Shown: positions 32,385 to 58,197 of the stretch, piece by piece
Layout: the number at the start of each line of letters is the position of its first letter
How positions within the stretch are numbered: the first letter of the stretch is position 1
Source of the DNA: a virus
Length of the DNA: 64,000 bases
Reading direction: 5' to 3' (one strand)
Virus record (IMG/VR): IMGVR_UViG_3300029955_000013
Span: 19,901-83,900 of that record
Position numbers and translations under genes: made by a program
Notes under the pieces: generated by a model
Databases searched by the model: none
The model's input: the letters and a program-made list of their open reading frames with translations, nothing else
What the model was told of the DNA's origin: nothing

Positions 32385-32419
32385 CAGGGTTAAAAAGAGT
32401 TTAAAATAAAAACAATTCT

Positions 32420-32692
32420 ATGAGTAATTTAAAGATACCTTCTTTTGAAGAGGTATTAGCGAATGATGGCAAGGCTGAAGACCTTGAGCTTATTAAGATA
32501 GAAAAGCAATCTCAGCTTGACACCCAGGTCAGGACCATAGAGGTTAAGATAGCAAGGGCACGCAAGCTTTTTGCGAAGTCTGTGATCGACCCGAAGATTG
32601 ACACTTTGGCGATTGCCTCAGAACTAAAGATATTGACTGCGGAACTCGAGCTTGCGAAGGAAATAAGAGAGGCGGTTTTCCCAAAAAATTAA
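32420..32692 (+). CDS. hypothetical coiled-coil protein
   Basis: 90-aa ORF. Confidence 0.6.
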   Translation: MSNLKIPSFEEVLANDGKAEDLELIKIEKQSQLDTQVRTIEVKIARARKLFAKSVIDPKIDTLAIASELKILTAELELAKEIREAVFPKN

Positions 32693-32696
32693 TTTG

Positions 32697-33476: not shown

Positions 33477-33964
33477 ACATATTTGTGCTCGGCGGTACCA
33501 AGTCCGGTAAATCCACCATTGCGAAGTATATTGCTGATACGTATGGCTTCAAACTCATACAGATGTCCAAGCCGCTGAAAGATAGGTTCGAGCGTGGGGA
33601 TCTGAACATAGACGTTTACACGAACATGTTGGTTAAGACCACGCTTAGTTACATAGGTTCCAAAGAGAGGCGTAAATCTGAGTATTTCTTGAATTACGCT
33701 TTGCTGGAAATGGGGCCTAATAATGTGTTCGACGGTGTGCGGAACCCTCGTGACTTCATGAGGCTTTTCAATCACTTCGAGGACATGGTTATAAAGATGC
33801 CTGGCGAAGGCATAAATGCTTTTGAGGTGGATGGCTTAAGAGCTATATTCGGCTGCCACAGGTATATGTACAAGTACATGAGCGCAAAGCCGCTGATCAA
33901 GTACCATTACGATCTGGAGCTATCCATAGAGGAGAATTTCCAGAACAACAAAATAGTCATTTAA
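33473..33964 (+). CDS. P-loop nucleotide kinase-like protein
   Basis: GGTKSGKST, FDGVRN. Confidence 0.7.
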   Translation: MNIFVLGGTKSGKSTIAKYIADTYGFKLIQMSKPLKDRFERGDLNIDVYTNMLVKTTLSYIGSKERRKSEYFLNYALLEMGPNNVFDGVRNPRDFMRLFNHFEDMVIKMPGEGINAFEVDGLRAIFGCHRYMYKYMSAKPLIKYHYDLELSIEENFQNNKIVI

Positions 33965-33973
33965 AAGTAGCTT

Positions 33974-35185
33974 ATGGTTTCTAAATTCGCAATGGACGAC
34001 GCTTATGCTGTACAGGCAGACATTATAGAAGGTTGGTACACGAAGTACAAGTCCATGGATTTGCCTAACGGCTTCAAGAGGGTGTTGTATAGCTTTTCTA
34101 AAAGCGGCGTATCTGTTGCTCTCGGCAGGAATGAAAAATACGGGTATTTCATCTGCGCTTACGGTCAGGGCGAATATTCTTTCGTGATGACAGAAGCTGA
34201 TAGCGAGAACATTCCTGCCGAGGAAGTCTTTGACGTTAAAACTAAGGAAGGATTTATAAAGCATTTCGAGAGGTTTTGCAGGGAGTATAATTACTTGGAT
34301 TTCGAGGTAGTCGATAATGTAAGAGCCTATGATGACACGACGCTTTTCTGCCCGGCCGGGATGCAGAAGTATAAGAACGTGTTTAAGGCGGAGTGCCCAG
34401 AGGATGCTGACAAGGCCGTAAGGCGTCAGTACATGAAGCTAAATGAGAGTGTTATAGCAAATATTCAACCTTGCATAAGGATGAACGATTTGGATGATAT
34501 TGGTGACGGCACGCATTTGCTTTACTTCAACATGATGGGCCTTTTTGCATTTAGGACTCCTGGCTTTGGTGTTAGGCATGCTGTAAAATTTTGGCTTGAT
34601 TTCCTTGAGACGATCGGCTTGAAACCGGATCTTGTTACTGTCCACCCAGACAAGCAAGATTGGATATTTTATTACCAAGATGAAACGGTAGAGCAGAAAT
34701 ATGTAGACGATTTTCTTCAGTATAACGGGCCTGATTTCCTGCTCGATCCAGATTGCACGTGGACTGATGGCGAGATTGGAGGTTACTGTACGGAGTTCTA
34801 CATAAAGGACGTGGAGATAGGCAACATTGTGAATCCGCTTGGTAACTGCATAGATTGCGGCTTTGGCCTCGAGAGGATTCTGTATATACTCAATAATGAG
34901 TTGACTATCGCAACCGATTTGGACACGCTTAAGGAAACCATACTTAAGATATTAGACAGCGGTTACACGCCATCTAATCTCAAACAGGGCTATGTTTTAA
35001 GGAAGCTGTTGAGGGAGTTCGTCAAGAAGGGCGGCGAGATGGATCACGAGGTGTTTCTCGACGAGAAGGATAGGCAGCGAAAAATATATGACAGGTGGCT
35101 GCTGCTCAAGGATAAGCACAAGGACAAGAGCCCTGAATGGTGGTATGATACGCACGGGATTGATTTGAAAATGATAAACGGTTAA
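33974..35185 (+). CDS. minimal alanyl-tRNA synthetase (aminoacylation domain only) with N-terminal extension
   Basis: TLFCPAGMQ, QPCIRMND, H..YFNMMG.F, IDCGFGLERI, GYVLRKLLR, YDTHG. Confidence 0.88.
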   Translation: MVSKFAMDDAYAVQADIIEGWYTKYKSMDLPNGFKRVLYSFSKSGVSVALGRNEKYGYFICAYGQGEYSFVMTEADSENIPAEEVFDVKTKEGFIKHFERFCREYNYLDFEVVDNVRAYDDTTLFCPAGMQKYKNVFKAECPEDADKAVRRQYMKLNESVIANIQPCIRMNDLDDIGDGTHLLYFNMMGLFAFRTPGFGVRHAVKFWLDFLETIGLKPDLVTVHPDKQDWIFYYQDETVEQKYVDDFLQYNGPDFLLDPDCTWTDGEIGGYCTEFYIKDVEIGNIVNPLGNCIDCGFGLERILYILNNELTIATDLDTLKETILKILDSGYTPSNLKQGYVLRKLLREFVKKGGEMDHEVFLDEKDRQRKIYDRWLLLKDKHKDKSPEWWYDTHGIDLKMING

Positions 35186-35188
35186 TTT

Positions 35189-35506
35189 ATGACCAAAGCG
35201 CCTTTTGACGTCTTCTTTACTTTTGATATAAGTTTGAATATTGTGTCTTATGATTCGGATAGTGATACAATGAATTGGTTTAGCCGGTCTGTTCGTAATC
35301 AGATTAAGCTTCACGAGGAAGTTGGAAAGAAGATGGAAGACAGAGGCTATCTTTATGGCTGGTATGAAATATTGGAGACTGATTTTAACTTTCTCACACC
35401 GGCTAAAGAGTCGATCCAGGATAAAAAGGTAAAAGTAAAAGTCGGCGCCTATAAGGATGAACAGTTTATGTATTCTAAGAAAGAATTGGAAAAAATGGTA
35501 AGTTGA
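35189..35506 (+). CDS. hypothetical protein
   Basis: 105-aa ORF. Confidence 0.55.
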   Translation: MTKAPFDVFFTFDISLNIVSYDSDSDTMNWFSRSVRNQIKLHEEVGKKMEDRGYLYGWYEILETDFNFLTPAKESIQDKKVKVKVGAYKDEQFMYSKKELEKMVS

Positions 35507-35516
35507 TAAGTAAGAT

Positions 35517-35592
35517 GGGCGATTACTCCCTCACCCTTATAAGGTGTTGAAAGGATAGTTGGTACAGTTCGGTTCGATCCCGAAATCGCCTA
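35517..35592 (+). tRNA. non-canonical D-armless tRNA with TAT (Ile) anticodon
   Basis: GGGCGAT/ATCGCCT; CACC-CTTATAA-GGTG; TTCGG-TTCGATC-CCGAA. Confidence 0.7.
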
Positions 35593-35594
35593 CA

Positions 35595-36071
35595 ATGATT
35601 TACGATGAATTGTGTGGAGAGATTTATGACGAGGTGATAAAGTTTAATATTTTTAAACAGTACCTCGAGAATTACGATGTAGATTTGCCTAAGTTAAGAG
35701 TTGAGACGCTCGATTTTTGTTCACAGACAGTCGATGGCAGGGATGCGGATTATATGGCCAGGATTGCCGCGGCAAAGCCGAAGATTTATTTCGCTACTCT
35801 TATAAAGAGCAAGATACTTGGCGAGCTCGTTAAAATCAAGAAACGTCAAGATTTACTCGAGAAATGGCAGGCATCAGGCATATTGGATGGCTTACACCAG
35901 GGAGTTAACACTAATATTGTTGCATTGATGGAAAGCCAGTCGGAGCAGAGTATTACTGAAAACAGGAGCGCTGAGTTCTATTGGGACACAGTAAGGCTTC
36001 CGCTCGTAAGGAGTGTGTTAATTGATTCTTTAATCAAAGAAGCAGAGCATGACCAGGAAGAAAAGGTATGA
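35595..36071 (+). CDS. hypothetical protein with segment resembling T4-like major capsid N-terminus
   Basis: LLEKW..SG.LDGL...NI..LMESQ...LPLVR.V. Confidence 0.55.
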   Translation: MIYDELCGEIYDEVIKFNIFKQYLENYDVDLPKLRVETLDFCSQTVDGRDADYMARIAAAKPKIYFATLIKSKILGELVKIKKRQDLLEKWQASGILDGLHQGVNTNIVALMESQSEQSITENRSAEFYWDTVRLPLVRSVLIDSLIKEAEHDQEEKV

Positions 36072-36429
36072 ACTTACGAAATCGTCTGCCGATAAATTGA
36101 CAGACGCCATTGGGTGCAAGATAGATTTTAAGATAAAAGAGCTTGTAGTTTATCTTAACTTAAATAAGTTCGTTACATTTGCATCTTGTCAGGGACATAG
36201 GAGTCACGGCTTGCGTTACCCTTGGATTGATTTCGACATAAAGTCATACAATGGTTTATTCGATTTTATAAAGAGGCACAAAATCGTCGGCCTTGAAATA
36301 AAGCTCTTGGAAAGCGGTGATGGTTTCGTTATGAGGCTACAACCGGTAGACAAGACCAGGATAAAGGCGGCGAGGGATATTTTTCACATGCTTGAGAAGA
36401 AGTTAAGTAAAAGTTTTTGGAATAAATAA
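36049..36429 (+). CDS. hypothetical protein (T.ASC.GH motif)
   Basis: FVTFASCQGH...PWIDF. Confidence 0.55.
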   Translation: MTRKKRYELTKSSADKLTDAIGCKIDFKIKELVVYLNLNKFVTFASCQGHRSHGLRYPWIDFDIKSYNGLFDFIKRHKIVGLEIKLLESGDGFVMRLQPVDKTRIKAARDIFHMLEKKLSKSFWNK

Positions 36430-36480
36430 GTGATTCTTAGTTTCATCGCTGTAGGGATTCTATTAATCAAAACAGTTAAA

Positions 36481-36834
36481 ATGAAAGATCTAAGAATGGC
36501 CTTTGAGGGTTTGAGGAAAAACCCAGTATTCGTTGAAAATTTCTCTTGTGTAGAAGACGTCTTTAATGGTTTTGTCACATCGGAAGAACAAGAGCAGGGA
36601 GTAGAGATACTATATGCTGCTTACCATAGACCAGATTGGGAAGGCTATGCTACAGTTTACTTCTACAATGCGATCTCCGGAAAGTATTACGAGGTACACG
36701 GCTCACACTGTTCCTGCTACGGCTTGGAAGGTCAATGGGTCCCAGAGGAATTATCGTTAGAGGGATTGCAATACATCCTCGACAATGGTAATTCACACGA
36801 GTATGACGACTTTAGAGAAATCTTGGGAAGTTAA
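36481..36834 (+). CDS. hypothetical phage protein
   Basis: GSHCSCYGLEGQW.PE motif. Confidence 0.7.
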   Translation: MKDLRMAFEGLRKNPVFVENFSCVEDVFNGFVTSEEQEQGVEILYAAYHRPDWEGYATVYFYNAISGKYYEVHGSHCSCYGLEGQWVPEELSLEGLQYILDNGNSHEYDDFREILGS

Positions 36835-36887
36835 AAAAATGGTATCAAAGTATTGGGTGAGATTCCCAGTATTCCCTGATACCAAAC

Positions 36888-36960
36888 AGGCCTGTATATC
36901 ATCGGTTAGATAGCCATGCTGATAACATGGAAGCAGTTGGTTCGACTCCAACCTGGCCTA
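36888..36960 (+). tRNA. tRNA-Ile(GAT)
   Basis: CCATG-CTGATAA-CATGG. Confidence 0.88.
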
Positions 36961-36975
36961 CACTAAAAGAATTTT

Positions 36976-38142
36976 ATGAAAGTAGATGTTAACCAGTTCA
37001 AGGAGATACCTTCTCCTCACGGAGTTGGATTGTGTGTCTACGGCGGCATGAGCGATGAAATCAAGGCATGGACCGAGTATCACGATATAAAGACAGAATT
37101 CCACGGAAGATTTACTAATTTTCTGTTTGACGGCCAGGATCTCGATAATTGTTTCAACGAGGGGAAGGTGTACGATTACGTGGATGGTTTTTCGCCGAAT
37201 CTTAATAAGCATTTGCACCTCGGTCATGCGTCTAATTTTGTAATAGCGAAAGCGTTGCAGAACATGGGAATTGGCAAGAAGTACATTGCGAACCTTGGTG
37301 ATACTGTTACTGGAGCTGTTGATAAGTTCGAGGCGCTCGAGGCTTTGAGTGACCTTTGGGACAAGTTTGATTACAAGGTCGATAAGATTTACTTCGCTAC
37401 ACAATTGGTAGGCGATGTTGAGATGGAGGATGGTACTGGCGATTATGTCGGCACGAAGGTTTTCGACGTGAACGGTCAGAAGATAGTTGGCCAGAAGAGC
37501 AACGGTAATTATAGTTACTTTTACCATGACGTCGTTCTCGCGAGCAAGTTGAAAGGCGAGACTCTGTATATGACCGGTTTCGAGCAGAAGGAGCACTTTG
37601 AGAGCTTGAAGTGTCTTTACCCCGGCACTAACCACCTGATGCTTGGCCTCGTGACGATCGACGGCAGGAAGATGTCGAGTAGCGAGGGTAACGTGATTAT
37701 GTTGGCGGACGTCATGGACACGCTCAGGACCGAATTTGGAGACGATCACCTTGCTTGGAATGTTTTGAGTGGTTATATACTCAAGTCAGACGTGGACTCG
37801 GTTAAGGACATCAATATGGCCAACATAGACAACCCACGACAGTCTCTCGGTTTGTACTTCAGTTACACGCTCGCAAAGTTGAAGAGCGCCGGCATGAATG
37901 TGGAGCTGAAGGAAAAGTTTAATTCTTTTCGGATGCAGTACAAGTTCTTGAAGGCAAAGACGAACCTGCAGCCGAGAATATTGTTCGACGGCATTTTCGA
38001 TGTTGCAAAGAAGATTAGTACTCTATACGTAAACCACCACATAGCAGGCAACAAGAAAAACCAGGAGCTGTACCAGCCTTTGATGGAGGATTTGCTGCTC
38101 GGCATGGTAAAGCTTGGCATGTTTGACGTAGATAAGGTTTAA
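36976..38142 (+). CDS. compact arginyl-tRNA synthetase-like protein
   Basis: SPNLNKHLHLGH, EQ.EHF, KMSSSEGNVI, LYFSYTLAKLKS, LG..KLG; 388 aa. Confidence 0.85.
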   Translation: MKVDVNQFKEIPSPHGVGLCVYGGMSDEIKAWTEYHDIKTEFHGRFTNFLFDGQDLDNCFNEGKVYDYVDGFSPNLNKHLHLGHASNFVIAKALQNMGIGKKYIANLGDTVTGAVDKFEALEALSDLWDKFDYKVDKIYFATQLVGDVEMEDGTGDYVGTKVFDVNGQKIVGQKSNGNYSYFYHDVVLASKLKGETLYMTGFEQKEHFESLKCLYPGTNHLMLGLVTIDGRKMSSSEGNVIMLADVMDTLRTEFGDDHLAWNVLSGYILKSDVDSVKDINMANIDNPRQSLGLYFSYTLAKLKSAGMNVELKEKFNSFRMQYKFLKAKTNLQPRILFDGIFDVAKKISTLYVNHHIAGNKKNQELYQPLMEDLLLGMVKLGMFDVDKV

Positions 38143-38249
38143 AGATAGTGCACCGGGATGGGATACCGGAACAGAATGCGATCCTCAAAGAATATAGCAA
38201 TTAGGCCGCCTGTGGCTATGTGTTAAATGGTATGAGGCATCCCAACAAT

Positions 38250-38323
38250 GGGGAGGTGGCCAAATGGTGAAGGCACTTGACTGATAATCAAGAGATGTGT
38301 GAGTTCGAGCCTCACTCTCCCCA
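38250..38323 (+). tRNA. tRNA-Ile(GAT)
   Basis: GGGGAGG/TCTCCCC; CTTGA-CTGATAA-TCAAG. Confidence 0.88.
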
Positions 38324-38468
38324 CGAGGCAATAGCAGGTAGCTCATGTACGTACCCTTCTGCAGACGTGGTCAAATCGTGAGCGAAGCATCAATCGTACC
38401 TGTCCACTGTAACGTGCAGTAGTAGCTGACTAAAAATACGAGACAAGTTGCGGAGAGACGCAACAAAC

Positions 38469-38547
38469 GGTGAGGTGATGGAATTGGCAGACATTGGGGA
38501 TAGGATTCCCCTGCGCAAGCGTGGAGGTTCGAGTCCTCCCCTTACCA
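38469..38547 (+). tRNA. Leu-type tRNA body with 6-nt anticodon loop (pseudo or non-canonical)
   Basis: GGTGAGG/CCTTACC; GGAATTGGCAGAC; GGGGA-TAGGAT-TCCCC. Confidence 0.65.
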
Positions 38548-38562
38548 CTTAAATTTAACGTT

Positions 38563-38829
38563 ATGACAAGTTTATTGAAGTTTAACAAGTCTGTTACCGA
38601 CAGGTTTACGCCTGCCGAGATCGGTGACATGTTGGTTGGCGAAAAGAAGTATGCCTTAGAGGTTGAGGGTGGTAACCGCGAGCCTACGGGCATCTTTAAG
38701 GACGAGGATGGCGACCTGTATGTTACCATACATGGTTACAAGGTTGGCCGCACAGACCTCGAGGTAGAGTTCGTGGTATTTCCACAATATGACAATCACA
38801 CAATTTTTCAAGCGAGGGTACAGATTTAA
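38563..38829 (+). CDS. hypothetical protein
   Basis: ATG after tRNA. Confidence 0.55.
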   Translation: MTSLLKFNKSVTDRFTPAEIGDMLVGEKKYALEVEGGNREPTGIFKDEDGDLYVTIHGYKVGRTDLEVEFVVFPQYDNHTIFQARVQI

Positions 38830-38911
38830 TGGTAAAGAAGATATTGAGATTTTTCGGTTTGTGTAAACCAGAGAGCGTAGAAGATTTTAAACAGCGTATA
38901 TCCAATAGGTA

Positions 38912-39334
38912 ATGGCAAACTATTTCACGGTTCGGGATCTTATTGAGTTCATAACGAATAACAACATCCCAATGGATGCAAGGATTTATATGCAGCGTGT
39001 GGAAGACGTCTATTTCAACGGAGTGGATATTGGTGGGTGTGGCGGCTATGTGGACGATAACGGTGTTCGCAGTTGTTTTCCGCCTGGTTCTAAAGCTGAT
39101 GGGTGGAAGACTGTCAAGAAAGAGGGTTATGCTTATCGTAAGGCTTTGGAGTTGAACAGAAGGGTAGATGCTGGAGATTTTCACAACAAGGAAGATTTCC
39201 CGGATCTGGAAGACCCTGAGGTTTTAAGGTCGAGCGAGGAAAGGCTCGAGGAGCTCAAGGAACAGTATTATCCTTGCTTCTCTCCGGTTTACTATGCTGA
39301 TCAGAAGGATTTGTTTTTGGATGCACACTATTAA
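38912..39334 (+). CDS. hypothetical protein
   Basis: 140-aa ORF. Confidence 0.65.
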   Translation: MANYFTVRDLIEFITNNNIPMDARIYMQRVEDVYFNGVDIGGCGGYVDDNGVRSCFPPGSKADGWKTVKKEGYAYRKALELNRRVDAGDFHNKEDFPDLEDPEVLRSSEERLEELKEQYYPCFSPVYYADQKDLFLDAHY

Positions 39335-39345
39335 ATAAAAATTAT

Positions 39346-39564
39346 ATGGGATTGGTAGTTAACGTTACTTCTAAAGAGATTATTAGTGGCAAGTTTATGA
39401 AAACGCTCATGAAGTTGCAGGGTTATATTCAGGAAGCCAAGGGTGACATTGAGGTTAGCCAGAGTTACAGTGCTAAAGCTGTGCACTCACGGATGGAGCG
39501 GATCATGGAACTTATGGAAGAAGACATGACCGCATTGGCAAACTCGATACAATTACCAGAATGA
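39346..39564 (+). CDS. hypothetical protein
   Basis: 72-aa ORF. Confidence 0.55.
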   Translation: MGLVVNVTSKEIISGKFMKTLMKLQGYIQEAKGDIEVSQSYSAKAVHSRMERIMELMEEDMTALANSIQLPE

Positions 39565-39806
39565 ACAAGTTTCTGCAAGAGGATTTTAAGGAAATTATTG
39601 ATCAGTTGTCAGAAAAGCTTGATCCAGGTAGCAAAAAAGTATTGCAAGAGGTGATAATGGATAATCTTGTCGAAATAAAAGAGAAATATCGTCTTTACAA
39701 GAATTCAGGCTCTGGCAGGATTAGCCTTAATTATACCCGTATTGCTATTGATTACTGGAGCCAAGTGCCTCATTTGATTGAGTTTCTTGAAAAATTTTTA
39801 GAGTAA
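39561..39806 (+). CDS. hypothetical protein
   Basis: Coupled ORF. Confidence 0.55.
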   Translation: MNKFLQEDFKEIIDQLSEKLDPGSKKVLQEVIMDNLVEIKEKYRLYKNSGSGRISLNYTRIAIDYWSQVPHLIEFLEKFLE

Positions 39807-39807
39807 T

Positions 39808-39880
39808 GGCACTGTAGACCAACGGGAGAGTCAACGGCTTTAAACCCCGTCAAGTGTCGGTTCGAGTCCGACCAGTGCTA
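39808..39880 (+). tRNA. tRNA-Leu(TAA), short variable loop
   Basis: GGCACTG/CAGTGCT; loop TT-TAA-AC. Confidence 0.8.
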
Positions 39881-39894
39881 CAAAAAATAAAAGC

Positions 39895-40428
39895 ATGCCG
39901 CAATCTACGATTGAGTTAAGGGATAAGTTTTGGCACAGGGACGAAGATGGTGTTCCAACGTCGGATGGGATAGAGGAGTGTGAGGACATACTAAGGAAGT
40001 ATGGCGTTACATTTGCTCGTGGGTACATAAGTACCACCGGAATCGATGTTGACATATCTGAAGAACTTAACGATGCCATCGAGTTCTTGGTTTATGAGTG
40101 GGACTATGCTTTCGACGGTTACGTCCAGGACAGGAGTCCGGAGAAAGAGACAGTATCAATATCCAAGGAACTTGCGATAGAGATCATAAAGGTCATAACT
40201 GATAAGACGGATAACGGTTATGAGTGGCGCAATCTCGCAGGCATAGAGTATGAGTTGTTCAAGTTCATGTTCATAGAGGAGATGCCTTATAACTCATACA
40301 AGGACCTAAGCGACGACGAGCTGCGTAAAGCAGTTCACATCTATGCGAAGGACAATCAGTACAGGTGGTATGGTCAGCCCATAGATCAAATAGAAGACGT
40401 GGAAGTAAATGCGGAGGATTTTGGTTAA
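39895..40428 (+). CDS. hypothetical protein
   Basis: 177-aa ORF. Confidence 0.65.
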   Translation: MPQSTIELRDKFWHRDEDGVPTSDGIEECEDILRKYGVTFARGYISTTGIDVDISEELNDAIEFLVYEWDYAFDGYVQDRSPEKETVSISKELAIEIIKVITDKTDNGYEWRNLAGIEYELFKFMFIEEMPYNSYKDLSDDELRKAVHIYAKDNQYRWYGQPIDQIEDVEVNAEDFG

Positions 40429-40534
40429 TAAAGTCGGTGGCATTGTTTGACTTGTGATTTTTTAGTGTAATAAAGTCGGTGCGAATTCTGGATTCGAGTT
40501 GTAAACCGAATAATAAAAACTAAAATTGAAGCAA

Positions 40535-40891
40535 ATGTTTAAGTATGTGTCTATTGACGAGTTAGTTGGTAAGGTCTTTAAAGAAGTAACTGCAAGTGTT
40601 GACGAAATGTATTTTATCGCGGAGACGGGAGAGAGATACACGTTCTATCACGACCAGGACTGTTGTGAGTGTGTTAGCATAGAGGATATTGATGGAGACA
40701 TCAGTGATCTTGTTTGCACTCCGATCACGATGGCTGAGGAGACTGTAATGGCAGCAACGGAAGAAGAGTGTAGTGAAAGTGGCACCTGGACTTACTACCG
40801 TTTTGCGACTGTAAGAGGTTACGTTACGGTTAGGTGGTTTGGTTCTTCTAACGGCTATTATTCTGAGGGCGTTTCGTTCGTGAAGTGTTAA
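40535..40891 (+). CDS. conserved hypothetical phage protein
   Basis: HDQDCCE.V, TWTYY.FAT..G.VT.RW.G.SNGYYSE. Confidence 0.75.
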   Translation: MFKYVSIDELVGKVFKEVTASVDEMYFIAETGERYTFYHDQDCCECVSIEDIDGDISDLVCTPITMAEETVMAATEEECSESGTWTYYRFATVRGYVTVRWFGSSNGYYSEGVSFVKC

Positions 40892-40920
40892 GATGTTTGG
40901 GGTGAAACTCCCCATAAATT

Positions 40921-40993
40921 GGTCCTGTAGCCCAATGGCAGAGGCGATAGGCTTAGAACCTATTTAGTGTCAGTTCGAGTCTGACCAGGACTA
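40921..40993 (+). tRNA. tRNA-Leu(TAG), short variable loop
   Basis: GGTCCTG/CAGGACT; ATAGG-CTTAGAA-CCTAT. Confidence 0.88.
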
Positions 40994-41195
40994 CTTTAAA
41001 ATGAGCAAATGGGTGTTGTAATTTTCTTTGCGTTATTGTTAGCAGCTTTTTTGATCGCTATGGTTATCGTTGCTTATGATTTTTACTGCGAGAGGAAGGA
41101 GAAAGATGGCAACTTGACATGGAAGCAATATTTTGATAACAAGAAACCTGATATGGGTGACTATTAACGTTTAATATTGCTCTATAAATAATTTT

Positions 41196-41657
41196 ATGAA
41201 AGATTTTGTTAAGAAGATCGACTCTATAGATCAGTTTCCGCCAGAATGTCTTGCGGAATGTTTGCCTGATTTTTTAAAGAAGTCTCGTTCGAAAGATAAT
41301 GAGCTTGAGTTGGACGATCTGATAGAGGTCATAGTTTGTTATGGCGATCGCGAGGAGTCAATCGAATCGCTTTACGTTAATTTCACTTATAGCTACACAA
41401 CAAAGAACTGGTTGTTCCAAGCTTTCGGTAGCCAGTATCGTAAGGGTGATTTGCTTTGTGATGAGGAAAATGAAAACTACATAACGGTTACAGACATTGC
41501 TGCGAAGAATAAGTACAATGAAGAGCGGCATGATAAGAAGAAGGAGGCTCGCATAAGGCAGTGGGGTGATTTGTTTTCGAGGCACACGAAAGAAGAGTTA
41601 CTTGTAGTGCTGAGCCAAATTGATTTCCCTAAAAGCATTATCGGCAAGATAAGATAG
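41196..41657 (+). CDS. hypothetical protein
   Basis: 153-aa ORF. Confidence 0.6.
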   Translation: MKDFVKKIDSIDQFPPECLAECLPDFLKKSRSKDNELELDDLIEVIVCYGDREESIESLYVNFTYSYTTKNWLFQAFGSQYRKGDLLCDEENENYITVTDIAAKNKYNEERHDKKKEARIRQWGDLFSRHTKEELLVVLSQIDFPKSIIGKIR

Positions 41658-41670
41658 TTATAAAAATGTT

Positions 41671-41742
41671 AATCGAGTACCTCAGAGGCCAGAGGCCAGA
41701 GGGATCGACGGAAAGTCGGTGGTTCGACTCCACTCTCGATTT
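41671..41742 (+). pseudogene. tRNA-like element lacking a proper anticodon arm
   Basis: AATCGAG/CTCGATT acceptor and GGTGG-TTCGACT-CCACT intact; AGAGGCC tandem duplication in D region. Confidence 0.6.
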
Positions 41743-41757
41743 CAATAAATTATTCAC

Positions 41758-42066
41758 ATGATAGTCAAGAAGAGATTTCCAAGTTTTTTCAGCGGCTACG
41801 AGGCCGACAAGACGATACACGAGGTATCTACGCATGATGAGCTGATGGAAATAAATTGGGTAAAGGACAAGGTTAAAATTCCAGGTCACATTGGGATTTT
41901 CTACTCGAAGATTCACTTGAACGATACGCCTTATTATCTCATGGCTCTTTCCAAAAGTGATAAAGAAATTATTTATTCTGTTATAGGATACGTGTACGGT
42001 GATGCGGCCCTTTTAGGTTTGACCGACTATACAGACTATATCAAGAAATACAACAGTACCAAGTGA
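41758..42066 (+). CDS. hypothetical protein
   Basis: 102-aa ORF. Confidence 0.6.
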   Translation: MIVKKRFPSFFSGYEADKTIHEVSTHDELMEINWVKDKVKIPGHIGIFYSKIHLNDTPYYLMALSKSDKEIIYSVIGYVYGDAALLGLTDYTDYIKKYNSTK

Positions 42067-42112
42067 AATTAGCTGTACCGCTTCAAGAGATAGTGGAGTT
42101 TGCGGTACGAAT

Positions 42113-42214
42113 GCCCGGTTGGCGAAACTGGTAGACGCACTGCCTTGTACTTTTAACGAGGAACAAGGTGGCAGCGCCCGAAAGGGTGTGGGAGTTCGAA
42201 TCTCCCATCGGGTA
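42113..42214 (+). tRNA. tRNA-Leu(GAG) with 18-nt insertion (42148-42165) inside the anticodon
   Basis: Removing the insert gives CTGCC-TTGAGGT-GGCAG; Leu D-loop and long variable arm intact. Confidence 0.8.
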
Positions 42215-42284
42215 GGAGTATAAAGTTAATACCTGCACGTGGTATGCTCTGCACACAGATTTATTCTGTGACTAAATTTAACTT

Positions 42285-42521
42285 ATGATCGCGGAATTTA
42301 CTGACGACCTGGTTGATTTCGTCGATCACCATGATTGTTCCATGCACCTCGACATGTTCGACAGCGCCAAGGATAAGGTTTTTAAGTTCGGCGACTGGAA
42401 GCTTAGGTTTGTCCACGACGAAATTGCTGATTGTGATGTTTTTTACGTTTCTTTGATCTCAGATTTAAAGAGACTGAACAATGAGTACAAGCCATACCCG
42501 AATTCCGGAAAGCCTCGATGA
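42285..42521 (+). CDS. hypothetical protein
   Basis: 78-aa ORF. Confidence 0.5.
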   Translation: MIAEFTDDLVDFVDHHDCSMHLDMFDSAKDKVFKFGDWKLRFVHDEIADCDVFYVSLISDLKRLNNEYKPYPNSGKPR

Positions 42522-42885
42522 GGCGGTAGACATAATAGTATCAAGCACCTCGCCGGAGGTGATAGAGAAATACAAGACCCTCACTGAAAAAGAGATCCTC
42601 AGCGGATCGCACCACTCGCTCGGCATGAGCATTAGGAACAACTGGCACCTATGGTGGGAGGAAAGTCATACTTACGATGAGTGGCCAAAAGAAAAACCAA
42701 AGTTAGTAGAAGAGTTTAATGCGCTCGGCATATACCATGCAGACGACATGAGCGGCATCATATTGTCTTCCGCCATAAGGCGGATACAGGACAAGCCACG
42801 TAAGCTCAATGAGGAAGTTGCGAAGTACAAGAAGTTCTGGGCGAAGCAGGGCTTCGAGGATGGGATATTTAAACCTAAAAAATAA
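42481..42885 (+). CDS. conserved hypothetical protein
   Basis: H.SLGM.IRN.W.LW...GI.HADDMS.II. Confidence 0.7.
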   Translation: MSTSHTRIPESLDEAVDIIVSSTSPEVIEKYKTLTEKEILSGSHHSLGMSIRNNWHLWWEESHTYDEWPKEKPKLVEEFNALGIYHADDMSGIILSSAIRRIQDKPRKLNEEVAKYKKFWAKQGFEDGIFKPKK

Positions 42886-42900
42886 TTATATTTTACATAA

Positions 42901-44037
42901 ATGTTTGGACAGATTAACACAAGGAAGGACTTGCCGCACTATGGTTACCCTTCGATCGAGCAGTTTAGGACGGTGATACACAATGTGAACCACAAGGCTC
43001 ACTACGTTGGCCAGGACGAGAACGGAGATGCCATATACGATCAGACGAGACAGAAGCCGACGCTAAAATTCATCGGTACCACGAAGCTGCATGGCACTAA
43101 CTGCGCGGTGGTAATTGACATCAAGAACGAGATAGTTTACTTCCAGTCGAGAGATAACGTGATAACGCCGGCTGAGGACAATGCGGGAGCAGCTACTTAC
43201 CTCGCCTCTATACAGCAGGACATTGTGAATATGGTTAAGGAGGTGATCCAGGAAGAATTCTACGCAAACGAAGTGTATAATTTCACGATACTCGAGACTA
43301 TGCACAAAGAGGACAAGAACAAGTTCGATACGATAGTTATTTACGGCGAGTGGTGCGGCGGCAGCATTCAGAAGGGAGTGGCTTTGAACGGGCTTGACAA
43401 GATGTTCGTAGTGTTCGACGTCGCCTTCATAGACAGCACCGCCGAGATAAAGCACAAGCGCTGGAAGTCTTACGATTTCGTGCAGAGGATCAAGTTGCCA
43501 AGCAAGAGGGTTTACAACATACTCGACTACAAGGTTTGGGACATCGACATCGATTTTAAGGCGCCTACGTTGTCGCAAAATGATTTGATTGACATAACTA
43601 CTGAGGTTGAGGCTCACTGTCCCGTTGGGCTTGCTTTTGGCAAGGATGGCATAGGAGAGGGAGTTGTTTGGAAGTGCATTACGCCGCCCTACGACGGTGA
43701 TTCGGGCTACTGGATGAAGGTCAAGGGGGAGAAACACTCTTCCTCGAAGGTGAAGACAATTGCGGCAGTCGATGTTGAGAAAGTAAGGAACGTGATTGAG
43801 TTCGTCGACAACGTCGTGACGGAGAGCAGGTGTCTGCAGTCGATCGACAAATTGAGGGAGGCTGGCAAGCCGCTGACGAGAGCGAGCCTCGGCGATTACC
43901 TCAGGTGGATATTCAACGACATCGTAAAGGAGGAGACCGACACGATGGTCGCGAACGGCATAGAGGCCAAGGCTGTTGGCGGTGCGATTTCCAACAAGGC
44001 GAGGGAGTGGTTCTTCGCGAACGAGTTGAATTTTTAA
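42901..44037 (+). CDS. RNA ligase, Rnl2 family
   Basis: Motif I KLHGTN, YGEW.G, FVVFD, GEGVV, KVK. Confidence 0.85.
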   Translation: MFGQINTRKDLPHYGYPSIEQFRTVIHNVNHKAHYVGQDENGDAIYDQTRQKPTLKFIGTTKLHGTNCAVVIDIKNEIVYFQSRDNVITPAEDNAGAATYLASIQQDIVNMVKEVIQEEFYANEVYNFTILETMHKEDKNKFDTIVIYGEWCGGSIQKGVALNGLDKMFVVFDVAFIDSTAEIKHKRWKSYDFVQRIKLPSKRVYNILDYKVWDIDIDFKAPTLSQNDLIDITTEVEAHCPVGLAFGKDGIGEGVVWKCITPPYDGDSGYWMKVKGEKHSSSKVKTIAAVDVEKVRNVIEFVDNVVTESRCLQSIDKLREAGKPLTRASLGDYLRWIFNDIVKEETDTMVANGIEAKAVGGAISNKAREWFFANELNF

Positions 44038-46561: not shown

Positions 46562-46576
46562 ACTTAGCAGGAGGCA

Positions 46577-46606
46577 AAGGGAATTCAGAAATGAGTTCCT
46601 TTTTTT
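46577..46606 (+). terminator. intrinsic terminator ending tRNA block 1
   Basis: GGGAATTCA-GAAA-TGAGTTCCT plus U-tract. Confidence 0.75.
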
Positions 46607-46636: not shown

Positions 46637-46900
46637 ATGAAATATCTGATAGTAATTTTCGCTTTTGCGACGTTAGGTTGTGACTGGTCATGGAATGTGC
46701 CAGTTTATAAGAGATACAATGGAATAGTAGTGGACAAACTGATTGTTCCACAAGACAGAGCTCTAACTGAGTATTACGTAGTTTTCAAGGCAGACTCACT
46801 CAGCAAGAACATTTCTGTTGAAATGGAATGGAAAAGGTATATAAATACCAAAGTTGGCCAGAGAATATCCTTTAATTTAACCGAAAGCGACATAAAATGA
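46637..46900 (+). CDS. small lipoprotein (paralog 1)
   Basis: Lipobox TLGC; TACATTTG at 46625. Confidence 0.7.
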   Translation: MKYLIVIFAFATLGCDWSWNVPVYKRYNGIVVDKLIVPQDRALTEYYVVFKADSLSKNISVEMEWKRYINTKVGQRISFNLTESDIK

Positions 46901-47172
46901 GATACATAATATTGACAGCTGCAATATTTTTAGCATCTTGTAATTCGGATTACACTGAGGTGAAGATGCATACTGGCATAATAGTAGACAAATTCATGAG
47001 ATCATCTGGGGACGATAATGGAGGTTCAACTCCAGTAATCGTAATGAGGGACGATTCTATTGTTAGAAACATACCAGTATACGTTAATCTTGGAATCTAT
47101 ACGAACGTGTGGGTTGGAAAAAAAGTGACACTATACTTATCGCAAGAAGCTATTGATACTTACTCGAGATAA
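46897..47172 (+). CDS. small lipoprotein (paralog 2)
   Basis: Lipobox LASC; G.IVDK...DS...Y.N..VG. Confidence 0.7.
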   Translation: MRYIILTAAIFLASCNSDYTEVKMHTGIIVDKFMRSSGDDNGGSTPVIVMRDDSIVRNIPVYVNLGIYTNVWVGKKVTLYLSQEAIDTYSR

Positions 47173-47185
47173 ATAAATTTGCAAA

Positions 47186-47482
47186 ATGAGAAGGAATAAT
47201 TGGAGTATAATCGTGTGTGCATTCATAGGCATGTTTCTGTTTGGCATTGCAGTTGGTTGTAAGCCTGGTCGGACGTACCATATTGCCGGCAAGGTGACCT
47301 CAAAGTTTACTCTTGCACGTGGTAAGAGTGATGATGATTTGTTTATAGTCGTTTACAGCGACTCTATGCACCAGAAGGTGCCGATCGAAGTTACCATGTC
47401 GACCTACATCAACCATGACGTGGGTGAATACATCGAGTTCGATCTCGACCAGTTCGACATAGATCGGGCGTTGAACTACTGA
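47186..47482 (+). CDS. small lipoprotein (paralog 3)
   Basis: Lipobox AVGC; DS...YIN..VG..I.F.L. Confidence 0.7.
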   Translation: MRRNNWSIIVCAFIGMFLFGIAVGCKPGRTYHIAGKVTSKFTLARGKSDDDLFIVVYSDSMHQKVPIEVTMSTYINHDVGEYIEFDLDQFDIDRALNY

Positions 47483-47579
47483 TTTCTGGAACGCCGGCAA
47501 AATAACTGCCCGGTTTGTTTGTTGTGGTAATATTGCCTATTTTTATGTCGATATATTGTATCACATATAAATAAAAGTA

Positions 47580-47738
47580 ATGATTATTATCTTGATTTTG
47601 ACGCACATAGGTGCATTTGCTGCCGGCGCATTGGTGTTCCGTAATAACTCGTCAAAGATTGAAACTACCGTGGACGCTGTGACAGCAACGGAGAAGACTG
47701 TTGTAGCCGACGTAAAAGATGTCGCCGCAAAAGTTTAA
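47580..47738 (+). CDS. 52-aa single-TM late protein (not in ORF track)
   Basis: MIIILILTHIGAFAAGALVFRNN...; TATAAATA at 47566. Confidence 0.55.
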   Translation: MIIILILTHIGAFAAGALVFRNNSSKIETTVDAVTATEKTVVADVKDVAAKV

Positions 47739-47767
47739 AAAAATTTTTTTTAGTATTTAAAATATTG

Positions 47768-47775
47768 TATATTTG
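47768..47775 (+). promoter_or_regulatory. Bacteroidota sigma-70 -7 element for tRNA block 2
   Basis: TATATTTG matches TAnnTTTG. Confidence 0.75.
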
Positions 47776-47793
47776 CATCGTAATAATAAAGCA

Positions 47794-47871
47794 ATGAAAA
47801 ATTTATCATCATACAGCTCAAGTTGGTCTTGGTCCTCTAAAAGGGATGAGAGCGGAACTGTATTGTGGTAA
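47794..47871 (+). CDS. attenuator leader peptide 2, MKNLSSYSSSWSWSSKRDESGTVLW
   Basis: 25 codons with 9 Ser and 3 Trp, between promoter and terminator. Confidence 0.82.
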   Translation: MKNLSSYSSSWSWSSKRDESGTVLW

Positions 47872-47894
47872 GTGAAATACTTTAAATACATTTG

Positions 47895-47927
47895 AGCCTC
47901 GTCCTAAACAGACGAGGTTTTTTATTT
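47895..47927 (+). terminator. attenuator terminator 2
   Basis: AGCCTCGTC/GACGAGGTT plus U-tract; 5' arm can instead pair with GGATGAG (47844-47850). Confidence 0.85.
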
Positions 47928-47930
47928 ACA

Positions 47931-48004
47931 TACGTCGTAGCATAATGGTATGCACCCGGTCTCCAAAACCGTGGATAGACAGAGTTCGATTCTCTGACGG
48001 CGTG
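47931..48004 (+). tRNA. tRNA-Trp(CCA)
   Basis: CGGT-CTCCAAA-ACCG; CAGAG-TTCGATT-CTCTG. Confidence 0.8.
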
Positions 48005-48019
48005 CTTTAAAAAGTGATA

Positions 48020-48277
48020 ATGAAGGCAAGTGAGTTGATTGTGAAGTTGCAGAAGGCTGTGAGCGAGCATGGAGACATGTTGGTGTTGGTCCAGGAAAAC
48101 GGTTTCGGTGGTTACTCCATGAAGATAGCGGAATCGGATGAGGGCGACTTGATGTACTTAGGTGACAAAGAACTCGAGAATCTCGACGATGACGAAATTA
48201 AAGAGCACGGCATCAAGGTGAATGAGGACAATTTTGTGTTTACGATCAACAGCCATACGACTTTGTTTTCGACTTAA
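48020..48277 (+). CDS. hypothetical protein
   Basis: MKASELI.KLQ...HGD phage-type start. Confidence 0.6.
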   Translation: MKASELIVKLQKAVSEHGDMLVLVQENGFGGYSMKIAESDEGDLMYLGDKELENLDDDEIKEHGIKVNEDNFVFTINSHTTLFST

Positions 48278-48287
48278 CAAAATATAC

Positions 48288-48358
48288 ACGGGTGTAGTTC
48301 AATGGTAGAATAAGAGTCTCCAAAACTCCAGATGTGGGTTCGAATCCGTCCATCCGTG
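48288..48358 (+). tRNA. tRNA-Trp(CCA), second copy
   Basis: ACGGGTG/CATCCGT; GAGT-CTCCAAA-ACTC. Confidence 0.88.
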
Positions 48359-48385
48359 CTTTTTTCAAATGCTAAGTATTGTGCA

Positions 48386-48583
48386 ATGGATATGTTGAAA
48401 TGTAGAAAAGGAAGCCATATTGCGGTTAAAGTGCCCATGATAGGGCTGGAGACGTTCGCCAAGGACGAGCGGGACGTCCCGGTTGCGATTTCGGAGGCCG
48501 TGGTCGCGTTCTGTATCGCGGCCGAGAAGTTTGGCCGCGGGATCGAGGTGGAGCTGGCGGAGGCGATCGAAAACGAGTTATAG
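48386..48583 (+). CDS. HicB-like small protein
   Basis: P.IGLETFA.DE.D...AI.EA...F. Confidence 0.4.
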   Translation: MDMLKCRKGSHIAVKVPMIGLETFAKDERDVPVAISEAVVAFCIAAEKFGRGIEVELAEAIENEL

Positions 48584-48678
48584 CGTGGACTAAAAATTTA
48601 GATCTTTGACATTGTGGAGGCTAATAAATGATTGTATTAGTCAGTATTATCTGTTATATTCGTGTAACAAATAAGTTA

Positions 48679-49629
48679 ATGGATAGGAAGGATGTTTATG
48701 CCGTGATAGACGGCGAGAGGAATTACCAGGATAACAAGTGGGGCCCGCAGGCTAATTCAAACAAACCGGTTGAGAGCTACATAGTTTACATGCAGGCTTA
48801 CTTGGCCGATGCCATACAGGCGATCTCCAAGAACGCCGGTACAAAGCTCGCTCTCGACGAGCTGAGGAAAGTGGTTGCTCTCGGCGTGTCTTGTTTTGAA
48901 GTCAACGGCGTCCCTAATAGAAAAGCAACGGTAGAGAATGAAGATGGACTTACGACGCCGGAAAAGTTTATCGAGTTCATTTCCGAAAATTGGATCAGGA
49001 GCGGCCTTTACAAGGAAAATCAGTTTTATAAGAGCTTTTACGCTATTGAGCCGATCTCTTTCGAAGAAAAAGAGGTGAAGTCTAAGTTCAATTTTGGCAC
49101 GGAGCTGTTCCAGTCTATTTGTTCCAGCTATACTTGTACGCCTAAAGAAGATTTGCTTTCCGAGTTGTACGGGATGTTCATGGAGCAGCTGTGTATGGAA
49201 GCTTTGACTGCTACTGTTAAAATGCTTGATGTTGAAGTTAAGGACATGACTTTCGTTAAGTCTGTTGATTCCATTCCTTTCGTCGGAAACATGATGATGG
49301 GTCCAGAGATGTTGGCTAATTTGTATCATGATTATAAATGCACGCCTAACAATATTAGCGATTTTTCCCCGCTTTTTATGGGGGCTGAGAGGTGTGCGAA
49401 GTTCAAAGACAAGAATGTATACGTTAATCCTTTTTTACCGGAAGACGTATTTCTGTTGTTCAATGAGGGCTTCATGAACTTCGATATTCTGTTCGATCCA
49501 AGGAAATCTGATTATGGCTATTACATGTTCAATTTGAAGATAAGGGTGAATAAGAATAACGTCAGGAGGTATAAAATTTCCGACGCACCGAGGTGGGAAC
49601 ACCCGGCATATTGTAACATTTTTAAATAG
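48679..49629 (+). CDS. protein with N-terminal MazG-like helical domain
   Basis: I..ER.YQD.KWG...ELRKV.AL.V.C.E. Confidence 0.5.
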   Translation: MDRKDVYAVIDGERNYQDNKWGPQANSNKPVESYIVYMQAYLADAIQAISKNAGTKLALDELRKVVALGVSCFEVNGVPNRKATVENEDGLTTPEKFIEFISENWIRSGLYKENQFYKSFYAIEPISFEEKEVKSKFNFGTELFQSICSSYTCTPKEDLLSELYGMFMEQLCMEALTATVKMLDVEVKDMTFVKSVDSIPFVGNMMMGPEMLANLYHDYKCTPNNISDFSPLFMGAERCAKFKDKNVYVNPFLPEDVFLLFNEGFMNFDILFDPRKSDYGYYMFNLKIRVNKNNVRRYKISDAPRWEHPAYCNIFK

Positions 49630-50985: not shown

Positions 50986-51077
50986 GGAAGGTTGGGCGAG
51001 TGGTTTATGCCGTTAGTTTTGAAAACTAAAGATCGTGTGATGAGCATGATCCGTCGGTTCGAATCCGACATCTTCCT
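50986..51077 (+). tRNA. tRNA-Ser(TGA)
   Basis: TTAGT-TTTGAAA-ACTAA; long variable arm. Confidence 0.9.
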
Positions 51078-51089
51078 CAAAATATAATT

Positions 51090-51451: not shown

Positions 51452-51536
51452 GGAGAGGTGTCAGAGTGGTCTATCGTAACAGTTTGCTAAACTGTTGACT
51501 GTAACAGGTCCAGGGGTTCGAATCCCCTCCTCTCCT
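51452..51536 (+). tRNA. tRNA-Ser(GCT)
   Basis: GGAGAGG/CCTCTCC; ACAGT-TTGCTAA-ACTGT. Confidence 0.9.
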
Positions 51537-51565
51537 CTGAAAAACAAAATGACAAATACATTTAC

Positions 51566-51922
51566 ATGCCACTACTTACGGATTATTTTATGGGTATTGA
51601 TATTGGGGATGGCACCATAGATAACTTATCATGTTTGGTGGTTATGAATAGCGATAAACTTGTTATATATCAAACTCTTATATGTGATAAAAAGCAGTTT
51701 AAAGAGGAGGTTAACAGGGTAAAAAAGTTTTATAATATCCCAAGTGAAAATATTTTAATTGTTAAACATAACATAAATAAAAGGAGTGTCTACACTACCG
51801 ATTTTCATGCAGAATTATTGGAGGGTTGGCAGAGCGGTCGAATGCGGCAGTCTCGAAAACTGTTGGCTGTAACAGGTCCGGGAGTTCGAATCTCCCACCC
51901 TCCTCCGGGTATTAATGTCTAA
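51566..51922 (+). CDS. hypothetical AT-rich ORF with RNase H-like start; reads through tRNA-Ser(CGA)
   Basis: YFMGIDIG motif; real 3' end doubtful. Confidence 0.4.
   Translation: MPLLTDYFMGIDIGDGTIDNLSCLVVMNSDKLVIYQTLICDKKQFKEEVNRVKKFYNIPSENILIVKHNINKRSVYTTDFHAELLEGWQSGRMRQSRKLLAVTGPGVRISHPPPGINV
51820..51904 (+). tRNA. tRNA-Ser(CGA)
   Basis: GGAGGGT/ACCCTCC; GCAGT-CTCGAAA-ACTGT. Confidence 0.92.
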
Positions 51923-51932: not shown

Positions 51933-52019
51933 AAGAAGTGAACCGGCTGGATCAGGAGCCAGTTGTGAAAGGCTGGTGGGCTCTAACAGGCCTTGGGAGT
52001 TCGAGTCTCCTCACTTATT
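51933..52019 (+). tRNA. non-canonical Ser-type tRNA (8/4- or 9/4-like fold, irregular anticodon loop)
   Basis: AAGTGA/TCACTT; GGAG-TTCGAGT-CTCC; CCAGT-TGTGAAAG-GCTGG; variable arm like neighbouring Ser tRNAs. Confidence 0.6.
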
Positions 52020-52087
52020 CTTTGGTTTAAACCATTATTAATTCGTTGTATTCTTTTGGGTTTGTATTTAAAGTATAAACGTTATTA

Positions 52088-53621: not shown

Positions 53622-53710
53622 GGAGAGGTGCCCGAGTGGTTGATGGGGCTCGCCTGGAAAGCGTGTTGTCGGGTCAAACTGGCACAAGGGTTCGAATCCC
53701 TTCCTCTCCT
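53622..53710 (+). tRNA. tRNA-Ser(GGA)
   Basis: GGAGAGG/CCTCTCC; loop CT-GGA-AA; long variable arm. Confidence 0.92.
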
Positions 53711-53791
53711 CCGAATTTAATTTTCGATTAGTGTTTGTTTGGTTTTCTATGATATTTTTTATACGAATATTTAAAAACCAAACAGCCCTGA

Positions 53792-57190: not shown

Positions 57191-57586
57191 ATGGCAAGAA
57201 TATTTTTGGGCGGAACATGTAACAATTCTACATGGAGAGATGATTTGATTAAGAAGTTGGAAGTAGATTACTTTAATCCAGTAGTACCAGACTGGACGGA
57301 GGAGGCTTACCAACAGGAGTTGGCAGAGCGAGAAACTTGTGACAAGTGTTTGTATGTGATAACGCCTAAGATGACAGGCGTTTATTCGATAGCTGAAGTA
57401 GTTGATGATTCGAATAAGAGGCCTGAAAAGACCGTGTTTTGTTTCATTGGATTCGATCAGGGGTTGGCCTTCGACAAGGGACAGGCCAAGAGCCTCGACA
57501 AGGTTGGCGTGATGGTCGAAAGCAATGGCGGCAAGTACTTAAAGACGCTTGATCAGGTTGCCAATTATCTCAACAGCAGTATATAA
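57191..57586 (+). CDS. nucleoside 2-deoxyribosyltransferase-like protein
   Basis: IFLGGTC..S.WR, YFNPVV..W, SIAE. Confidence 0.75.
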   Translation: MARIFLGGTCNNSTWRDDLIKKLEVDYFNPVVPDWTEEAYQQELAERETCDKCLYVITPKMTGVYSIAEVVDDSNKRPEKTVFCFIGFDQGLAFDKGQAKSLDKVGVMVESNGGKYLKTLDQVANYLNSSI

Positions 57587-57596
57587 TATTATACAT

Positions 57597-58164: not shown

Positions 58165-58197
58165 GACCATCCTCACGAGGGATGGTTTCTTTTTTTT
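58165..58197 (+). terminator. intrinsic terminator
   Basis: ACCATCCT...GGGATGGT plus U-tract. Confidence 0.75.

Follow-up and report, generated by a model that had tools for sequence, protein, structure and literature searches.

A probable leader-peptide attenuator with serine and tryptophan codons upstream of tRNA genes in a peat phage

We found that a 25-codon open reading frame (ORF) with a run of serine and tryptophan codons, Leader 2, precedes the tRNA-Trp and tRNA-Ser genes of an uncultured peat phage and probably acts as a ribosome-mediated (leader-peptide) transcription attenuator that gates phage tRNA genes. The sequence-only reading of this DNA had proposed such an attenuator, and our analysis supports it: a promoter-like box is followed by a short ORF with its regulatory codons in region 1, by a 2:3 antiterminator, and by a terminator that ends ~5 nt before tRNA-Trp. 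Leader 2 has the parts by which an attenuator is recognized, i.e. a short ORF, a run of cognate codons, an intrinsic terminator, and both an antiterminator and an anti-antiterminator. The anatomy is that of a multivalent leader-peptide attenuator of the thr and ilv kind; what is new is the target, phage tRNA genes, and the arrangement is apparently unpublished.

Why phages carry tRNA genes is debated, with codon bias, host tRNA degradation, and escape from tRNA-cleaving defenses as the proposed reasons. To our knowledge, the regulation of phage tRNA genes is essentially unknown, and we know of no earlier case of classical attenuation controlling tRNA genes.

Results

The window, i.e. the whole 64,000-nt stretch of DNA that was analyzed, comprises bases 19901-83900 of an 83.9-kb viral contig (IMGVR_UViG_3300029955_000013) with a G+C content of 44%; positions below are those of the window. 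Identical copies of this DNA are carried by many peat metagenome runs, and in contigs from four such runs, compared over 47000-49000, Leader 2 is identical wherever it is covered. The portal protein of the phage is a distant T4-type portal (26-31% identity to the portals of Flavobacterium and Microcystis phages). A Shine-Dalgarno-like motif is present at 4 of the 74 long ORFs in the contig, and A makes up ~60% of positions -12 to -8 ahead of the starts, which is the Bacteroidota style of starting translation.

In the window, ARAGORN and Rfam found one tmRNA and 27 tRNA genes, with every tRNA gene on the + strand and the genes sorted by amino acid. Each of the two tRNA units of this island is bounded by a strong terminator, at 46576-46603 for the unit behind Leader 1 and at 58165-58187 for that behind Leader 2. 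A search for further cassettes before the Ile, Pro, Leu, Cys, and Met tRNAs of the island found none, so the island has two cassettes in total.

Several other features of the island were observed. The phage-encoded tmRNA (23485-23899), whose tag peptide ends in AIAA, adjoins a GIY-YIG/SegE-like homing endonuclease gene (23939-24862). Within the tRNA island, an RNA ligase family gene (PF09414) at 42901-44037 fits a tRNA-repair role, judged by its family and position. The tRNA-Pro at 38469-38548 has the anticodon AGG, and an A at position 34 is unusual among bacterial-type Pro tRNAs. Between the two tRNA units (46637-47482) lie three tandem small paralogous ORFs of 87, 91, and 98 aa, which have signal-peptide-like N-termini and a lipobox-like Cys (TLGC, LASC, and AVGC) and are preceded by a TACATTTG box at 46625.

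Leader 2 occupies 47794-47871 on the + strand (ATG at 47794, 25 codons, TAA at 47869-47871) and is the one sizeable ATG ORF in the 193-nt gap that holds it. Its regulatory codons 5-15, i.e. region 1 (47806-47838, + strand), are TCA TCA TAC AGC TCA AGT TGG TCT TGG TCC TCT, which encode SSYSSSWSWSS (8 Ser, 2 Trp, and 1 Tyr). The sequence-only reading had described this run as Ser or Trp at 10 of 11 codons with five of the six Ser codons in use, and both statements match the letters exactly, TCG being the Ser codon that is missing. Among the ~168,000 windows of 11 codons in the six frames of the entire 83.9-kb contig, the Leader 2 run alone has 10 Ser/Trp. Taken as a whole peptide, Leader 2 matches the tRNA set of its own unit (binomial P = 5e-6) and does not match that of the Leader 1 unit; for the single Tyr codon of the run, the window has no clear cognate tRNA gene.

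The start context of Leader 2 is A-rich and lacks a Shine-Dalgarno motif, as do 70 of the 74 long ORFs of the contig, and we infer that the ORF is translated and that ribosomes would stall at the run. No orthologue of Leader 2 was found when IMG/VR, a 5.8-billion-protein set, and metagenome contigs were searched with the neighboring 333-aa and 85-aa ORFs, nor in searches with a synonymous-degenerate DNA pattern of Leader 2 and a 20-mer of the first tRNA-Trp; these queries returned only the phage itself or one unrelated partial match.

Ahead of the ORF, a promoter-like region (47739-47775, + strand) consists of the A/T tract AAAAATTTTTTTT, 16 nt, and the -7 box TATATTTG (47768-47775). This box fits the Bacteroidota -7 box TAnnTTTG. 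We found that the composite A5T6-N(8-24)-TAnnTTTG occurs exactly twice in the 64 kb, each time just 5' of a leader (0.00 expected from shuffles), and hence Leader 1 and Leader 2 have this promoter layout in common. Since TAnnTTTG alone occurs at chance frequency in the window, the promoter of Leader 2 is a putative one.

The leader RNA is predicted to form three mutually exclusive hairpins, each far stabler than shuffled sequence. Hairpin 1:2 (47801-47873, + strand), the anti-antiterminator or pause hairpin, has -23.9 kcal/mol (z = -3.14 vs shuffles), and its 5' arm is the Ser/Trp codon run. Antiterminator 2:3 (47843-47905, + strand) has -21.6 kcal/mol (z = -4.55 vs shuffles); in it, inner stems separate GGGAUGAG (47843-47850) from its pairing partner CUCGUCCU (47898-47905). 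The intrinsic terminator 3:4 with its T-run (47894-47926, + strand) is a hairpin at 47894-47920 with a 10-bp stem and a 7-nt loop (-14.2 kcal/mol, z = -5.67). Two pairings named in the earlier reading recur in the predicted antiterminator: GGATGAG (47844-47850) with CTCGTCC (47898-47904), which overlaps the terminator 5' arm, and the inner stem of TGTATT (47859-47864) with AATACA (47885-47890).

The unconstrained fold of 47782-47931 is the long hairpin 47801-47873 plus the terminator (z = -4.15). When region 1 is masked to mimic a ribosome with Trp codon 11 in its A site, the minimum-energy fold becomes the antiterminator, even with the full terminator sequence included. A ribosome placed at the stop codon covers region 2 and leaves the terminator free. 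Because stalls at codons 13-15 would cover the base of the antiterminator, only stalls at codons 5-12 look productive. The energy ranking of these structures resembles that of the trp leader.

Behind Leader 2, the first gated gene would be tRNA-Trp(CCA) at 47932-48005 (ARAGORN; Rfam 32 bits, just above the cut-off), followed by a second tRNA-Trp(CCA) at 48288-48359 and by tRNA-Ser(TGA) at 50986-51078, tRNA-Ser(GCT) at 51452-51537, tRNA-Ser(CGA) at 51820-51906, and tRNA-Ser(GGA) at 53622-53712, all on the + strand. Hence, the two tRNA-Trp(CCA) and four tRNA-Ser genes that had been listed from the letters were all found by both ARAGORN and Rfam. The odd Ser-like tRNA listed with them lies at 51934-52020 and is tRNA-like, its variable arm being long and its anticodon loop 8 nt in length. 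It was recovered by ARAGORN only once the threshold was relaxed, as 'tgtg' or as His-GTG with a 3-nt insert, and Rfam at E<1 gave no match; this sequence may be a pseudo-tRNA or else an unusual decoder.

The tRNA-Ser genes sit 3-6 kb downstream of Leader 2, past at least 7 protein ORFs, and we found neither terminator-like sites on the + strand nor obvious promoters between Leader 2 and these genes. On the strength of this uninterrupted stretch they are probably co-transcribed with Leader 2, a reading that is kept conditional because ~19 protein ORFs lie scattered between the tRNAs of the unit. The next strong terminator, at 58165-58187 on the + strand, likely ends the Leader 2 transcription unit. 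Directly before tRNA-Met (57597), at 57558-57587, is the region's best match to a sigma-70-type promoter (TTGCCA-18-TATAAT, 11/12), so the two terminal Met tRNAs may have their own promoter.

The protein genes of the 10-kb Leader 2 unit encode an M23 peptidase, MGS-like and Ham1-like proteins, and unknowns; no Ser or Trp metabolic or synthetase domains were found among them. Their Ser+Trp content is 7.9%, vs 7.2% for the proteins of the Leader 1 unit, and this near equality rules out that the leader mirrors the codon demand of the downstream proteins. Hence, the leaders mirror the tRNA genes rather than protein demand.

Leader 1 is a sister cassette at 27074-27297 (+ strand), with a promoter-like motif (27074-27110), an ORF (27156-27248), and a terminator (27270-27297). 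Codons 7-22 of this ORF read ILILGTEGTTEILEGI, which is Ile, Leu, Gly, Thr, or Glu at 16 of 16 positions and is the only such 16/16 window of the contig in a six-frame scan. The terminator abuts the genes for tRNA Gly, Thr, and Glu, with those for Ile and Leu further on. Leader 1 matches the tRNA set of its own unit (P = 2.5e-3) and not that of the Leader 2 unit. Its predicted antiterminator (-15.3 kcal/mol) forms only before the terminator 3' arm is made, i.e. kinetically; as in the trp leader, the terminator is the stabler structure.

A CAT-anticodon tRNA at 29469-29543, one of three, sits in the Leader 1 unit, and Leader 1 has two ATA (Ile) codons; this tRNA may be a lysidine-type tRNA-Ile rather than a tRNA-Met. 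Four protein genes among the tRNAs behind Leader 1 have synthetase-like matches, all of them below the family cut-offs: a GlyRS-like class II core of 239 aa (27632-28351), a GluRS catalytic domain of 290 aa without the anticodon-binding part (30779-31651), an AlaRS-like core in a 403-aa protein (33974-35185), and a protein of 388 aa that weakly matches class I (Arg/Leu/Ile) synthetases (36976-38142). Since the Gly and Glu synthetase-like matches fit the codons of Leader 1, its attenuator may gate enzymes besides tRNAs.

The 239-aa GlyRS-like core has 79 metagenome relatives (L043-L121). Several are on contigs of 375 kb to 1.9 Mb (e.g. L055, L066, L070, L075, L085, L087, L093, and L095), and in a few loci (L048, L052, and L054) the gene directly follows tRNA-Gly or tRNA-Ala genes. 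At eight loci (L058-L060, L066, L071, L072, L074, and L085), a tRNA with the anticodon CTA (ARAGORN 'Pyl') is found ~0.4-1.1 kb upstream of the GlyRS-like gene; it may be an amber-suppressor tRNA of TAG-recoding phages. A search of the 79 loci for cassettes of a terminator plus tRNA genes gave no informative case, the flanks being short, the tRNAs few, and some of the contigs ending at a tRNA.

Similar cassettes were found in other phages; related viral contigs were reached via the portal protein, and the cultured Cellulophaga phage phi38:1 via a weak tRNA match. A distantly related 137-kb viral contig (portal 52% identical) has 34 tRNAs in three clusters; ahead of each cluster lie a promoter-like stretch that recurs, a single small ORF, and a terminator. 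The leader with the core SLLSHLHLLSSS is followed by His, Leu, Ser, Leu, and Leu tRNAs, and that with the core IQIPQQPRR by Pro, Gln, Pro, Ile(TAT), Gln, Arg(ACG), and Pro tRNAs. The third leader, of 28 codons, precedes an 18-tRNA cluster; it contains each of the 15 amino acids of that cluster plus a single further one. In a 29-kb relative, a comparable cassette stands before Tyr, Asn, Arg, Trp, and additional tRNAs. In all four of these cassettes (three in the 137-kb contig and one in the 29-kb relative), a segment that lies within the ORF or directly behind it is predicted to pair with the terminator 5' arm if the fold is computed without the 3' arm.

In phage phi38:1 (NC_021796.1, region 31282-43367), we found three cassettes with the box TTGTATATTT(G/A), located near 35.25-35.45, 36.71-36.95, and 37.95-38.15 kb of the record. 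The leader cores are KTIMNIATDIRTKGVK, upstream of Lys, Ile, Gly, Met, Asp, Thr, Val, and Arg tRNAs; YNNFSWYSNCSFSSYN, upstream of Tyr, Ser, Ser, Asn, Trp, and Phe tRNAs; and LLHQEPLEQLRLP, upstream of Pro, Glu, Gln, His, Leu, and Arg tRNAs. In the first of these cassettes, a segment pairs with the terminator 5' arm. The tRNA-Tyr(GTA) and tRNA-Trp(CCA) genes of phi38:1 are unannotated; ARAGORN found them (5650-5732 and 6007-6079 of the region) once its threshold was relaxed. In the published record, the leaders are parts of the hypothetical proteins gp066 and gp070 or are missed or overlapped by the minus-strand calls gp067 and gp068. The available main text of the phi38:1 RNA-seq paper (PMC5335546) does not mention phage tRNA regulation.

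The tRNA blocks behind the cassettes of phi38:1 and of the 137-kb contig are compact, interrupted by few protein genes or none, and the amino acid set of each leader there is that of its tRNAs. When leaders were assigned to clusters in every possible way within each of the three genomes (eight cassettes in all), the true assignment always had the best score, and the whole-peptide binomial tests give a Fisher's combined P = 4.6e-21. The cassettes of the 137-kb contig and phi38:1 are analogous to Leader 2 and not homologues of it.

Discussion

If Leader 2 works as an attenuator, host RNA polymerase would start a few bases past the TATATTTG box, and the 25-codon ORF would be translated by a ribosome while the polymerase advances. 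With Ser- and Trp-tRNAs plentiful, the ribosome would reach the stop codon and cover region 2, the 3:4 terminator would form, and transcription would stop ~5 nt before tRNA-Trp. With slow decoding of the Ser and Trp codons (47806-47838), a stalled ribosome would hold region 1, and region 2 (47843-47873), freed by the stall, would pair with the terminator 5' arm (47898-47905). Once this antiterminator formed, the polymerase would enter the two tRNA-Trp genes and probably also the four tRNA-Ser genes. As the new tRNAs built up, the leader would be read faster and the switch would close, i.e. supply on demand with negative feedback. The promoter, the translation of the ORF, the stalling, the read-through, and the extent of the transcription unit are here predicted from the DNA.

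An unlikely alternative, which does not exclude the attenuator model, is that the translated leader acts by another route: it would shield the nascent tRNA transcript from Rho or RNases, set its stability, or work in trans as a leader RNA or peptide. In its favor, the terminated Leader 2 product would be a stable, structured RNA of ~130-140 nt, and trans-acting attenuator RNAs and leader peptides are reported, as with rnTrpL/peTrpL of Sinorhizobium (PMC6614838, PMC7298713). However, action by such a route leaves unexplained the complementarity of region 2 to the terminator 5' arm in the cassettes that were folded as well as the constant placing of the regulatory codons in region 1.

We consider it very unlikely that the cassette is a coincidence, i.e. 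an ordinary promoter/terminator boundary between units with a chance Ser/Trp-rich small ORF that is neither translated nor sensed. Small ORFs are common in any sequence and the TAnnTTTG box alone is at chance frequency, but the richest Ser/Trp window of ~168,000 falls within 100 nt of the first Trp tRNA, and the 2:3 pairing, with its z of -4.55, overlaps the terminator arm. The sequence-only reading had argued that a second independent instance makes coincidence unlikely, and the argument holds: Leader 1 and six more cassettes in two other phage lineages match their own tRNA sets (the combined P of 4.6e-21). We give hardly any credence to the idea that the attenuator chiefly controls the protein genes of the 10-kb unit under Ser/Trp starvation with the tRNA genes as passengers; for all that the tRNAs are interspersed with ~19 protein ORFs and that classical attenuators respond to amino-acid supply, the proteins of the unit are not Ser/Trp-rich and have no Ser or Trp metabolic or synthetase domain, and compact tRNA blocks follow the cassettes of phi38:1 and the 137-kb contig, where leader and tRNA sets match as well.

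Leader-peptide attenuation of tRNA genes, the reading that we favor, has its closest anatomical relatives in the enterobacterial leader-peptide attenuators, which include trpL, hisL, pheL, and leuL and the multivalent thrL and ilvGMEDA leaders. Like these, Leader 2 has a short ORF, regulatory codons in region 1, 1:2, 2:3, and 3:4 hairpins, and a terminator before the first gene, and like the thr and ilv leaders it would sense several amino acids in one leader. Unlike them, it has a Bacteroidota-type promoter, no Shine-Dalgarno motif, and no sequence homology, and its targets are phage tRNA genes rather than biosynthetic enzymes. Because the targets are tRNA genes, it is the adaptor itself that would be restored and not the amino acid. 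In E. coli, pheST with its pheM leader is a case of leader-peptide attenuation of a translation-apparatus gene that senses its own aminoacyl-tRNA; it differs from Leader 2 in that its target is a synthetase, the system is cellular, and one amino acid is sensed, and in this comparison the Leader 1 unit carries synthetase-core-like genes.

T-box riboswitches bind uncharged tRNA directly via a specifier codon, without a ribosome or ORF; as would Leader 2, they use transcription antitermination to report the state of a specific tRNA. We rejected Leader 2 as a T-box, as there was no match to RF00230 even at E up to 10, and none of the leader, T-box, and sRNA families of Rfam fits it. The best leader-family match, RF01692 (Bacteroid-trp), is at chance level (19.1 bits vs a gathering score of 49, E = 9.6). 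This element, which shows that control of this type occurs in the presumed host phylum, is like Leader 2 in being a leader-peptide element with Trp codons in Bacteroidota-type genomes and unlike it in preceding trp biosynthesis genes rather than tRNAs. Hence, with that score and with tRNAs as the downstream genes, Leader 2 was also rejected as a classical amino-acid-operon leader.

The nearest published control of a tRNA array that we found is the trn operon of Anabaena sp. PCC 7120, an array that is silent until translation is impaired and with which the RNA-repair ligase gene rtcB is co-regulated (PMC8421152; PMC10272220). Like the island of the peat phage, it is an accessory tRNA array, and the phage island also has an RNA ligase and a tmRNA. 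Its control is at the promoter, via direct repeats and the repressor TrcR (PMC8421152; PMC10272220), and unlike Leader 2 it is without codon-specific sensing; the terms 'attenuat', 'leader', and 'terminator' are absent from the main texts of these two papers. Our search found no published account of leader-peptide attenuation of tRNA genes, although its coverage of the literature was incomplete and absence is therefore unproven.

It is possible, and we suggest it tentatively, that codon-matched leader-peptide attenuators are a general, unreported control of phage tRNA islands, at least of those with Bacteroidota-type signals, phi38:1 included. Because phi38:1 is a cultured phage with the same layout, the proposal can be tested at the bench now. 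A leader of this kind predicts the content and extent of its tRNA operon, which would aid annotation, and codon-matched leaders would offer synthetic biology compact codon-specific sensors.

If the model is true, each tRNA block would be switched on by stalling at the codons that the block serves, and the phage could detect and repair the loss of particular tRNAs, whether through host shut-off, codon mismatch, or a host anticodon-nuclease defense. Along with the nearby tmRNA, RNA ligase, and synthetase-like genes, the leaders would then form a self-regulating translation-rescue island. Hence, the phage would gauge decoding speed codon by codon and make tRNAs on demand, and the question of why phages carry tRNAs would become a testable circuit.
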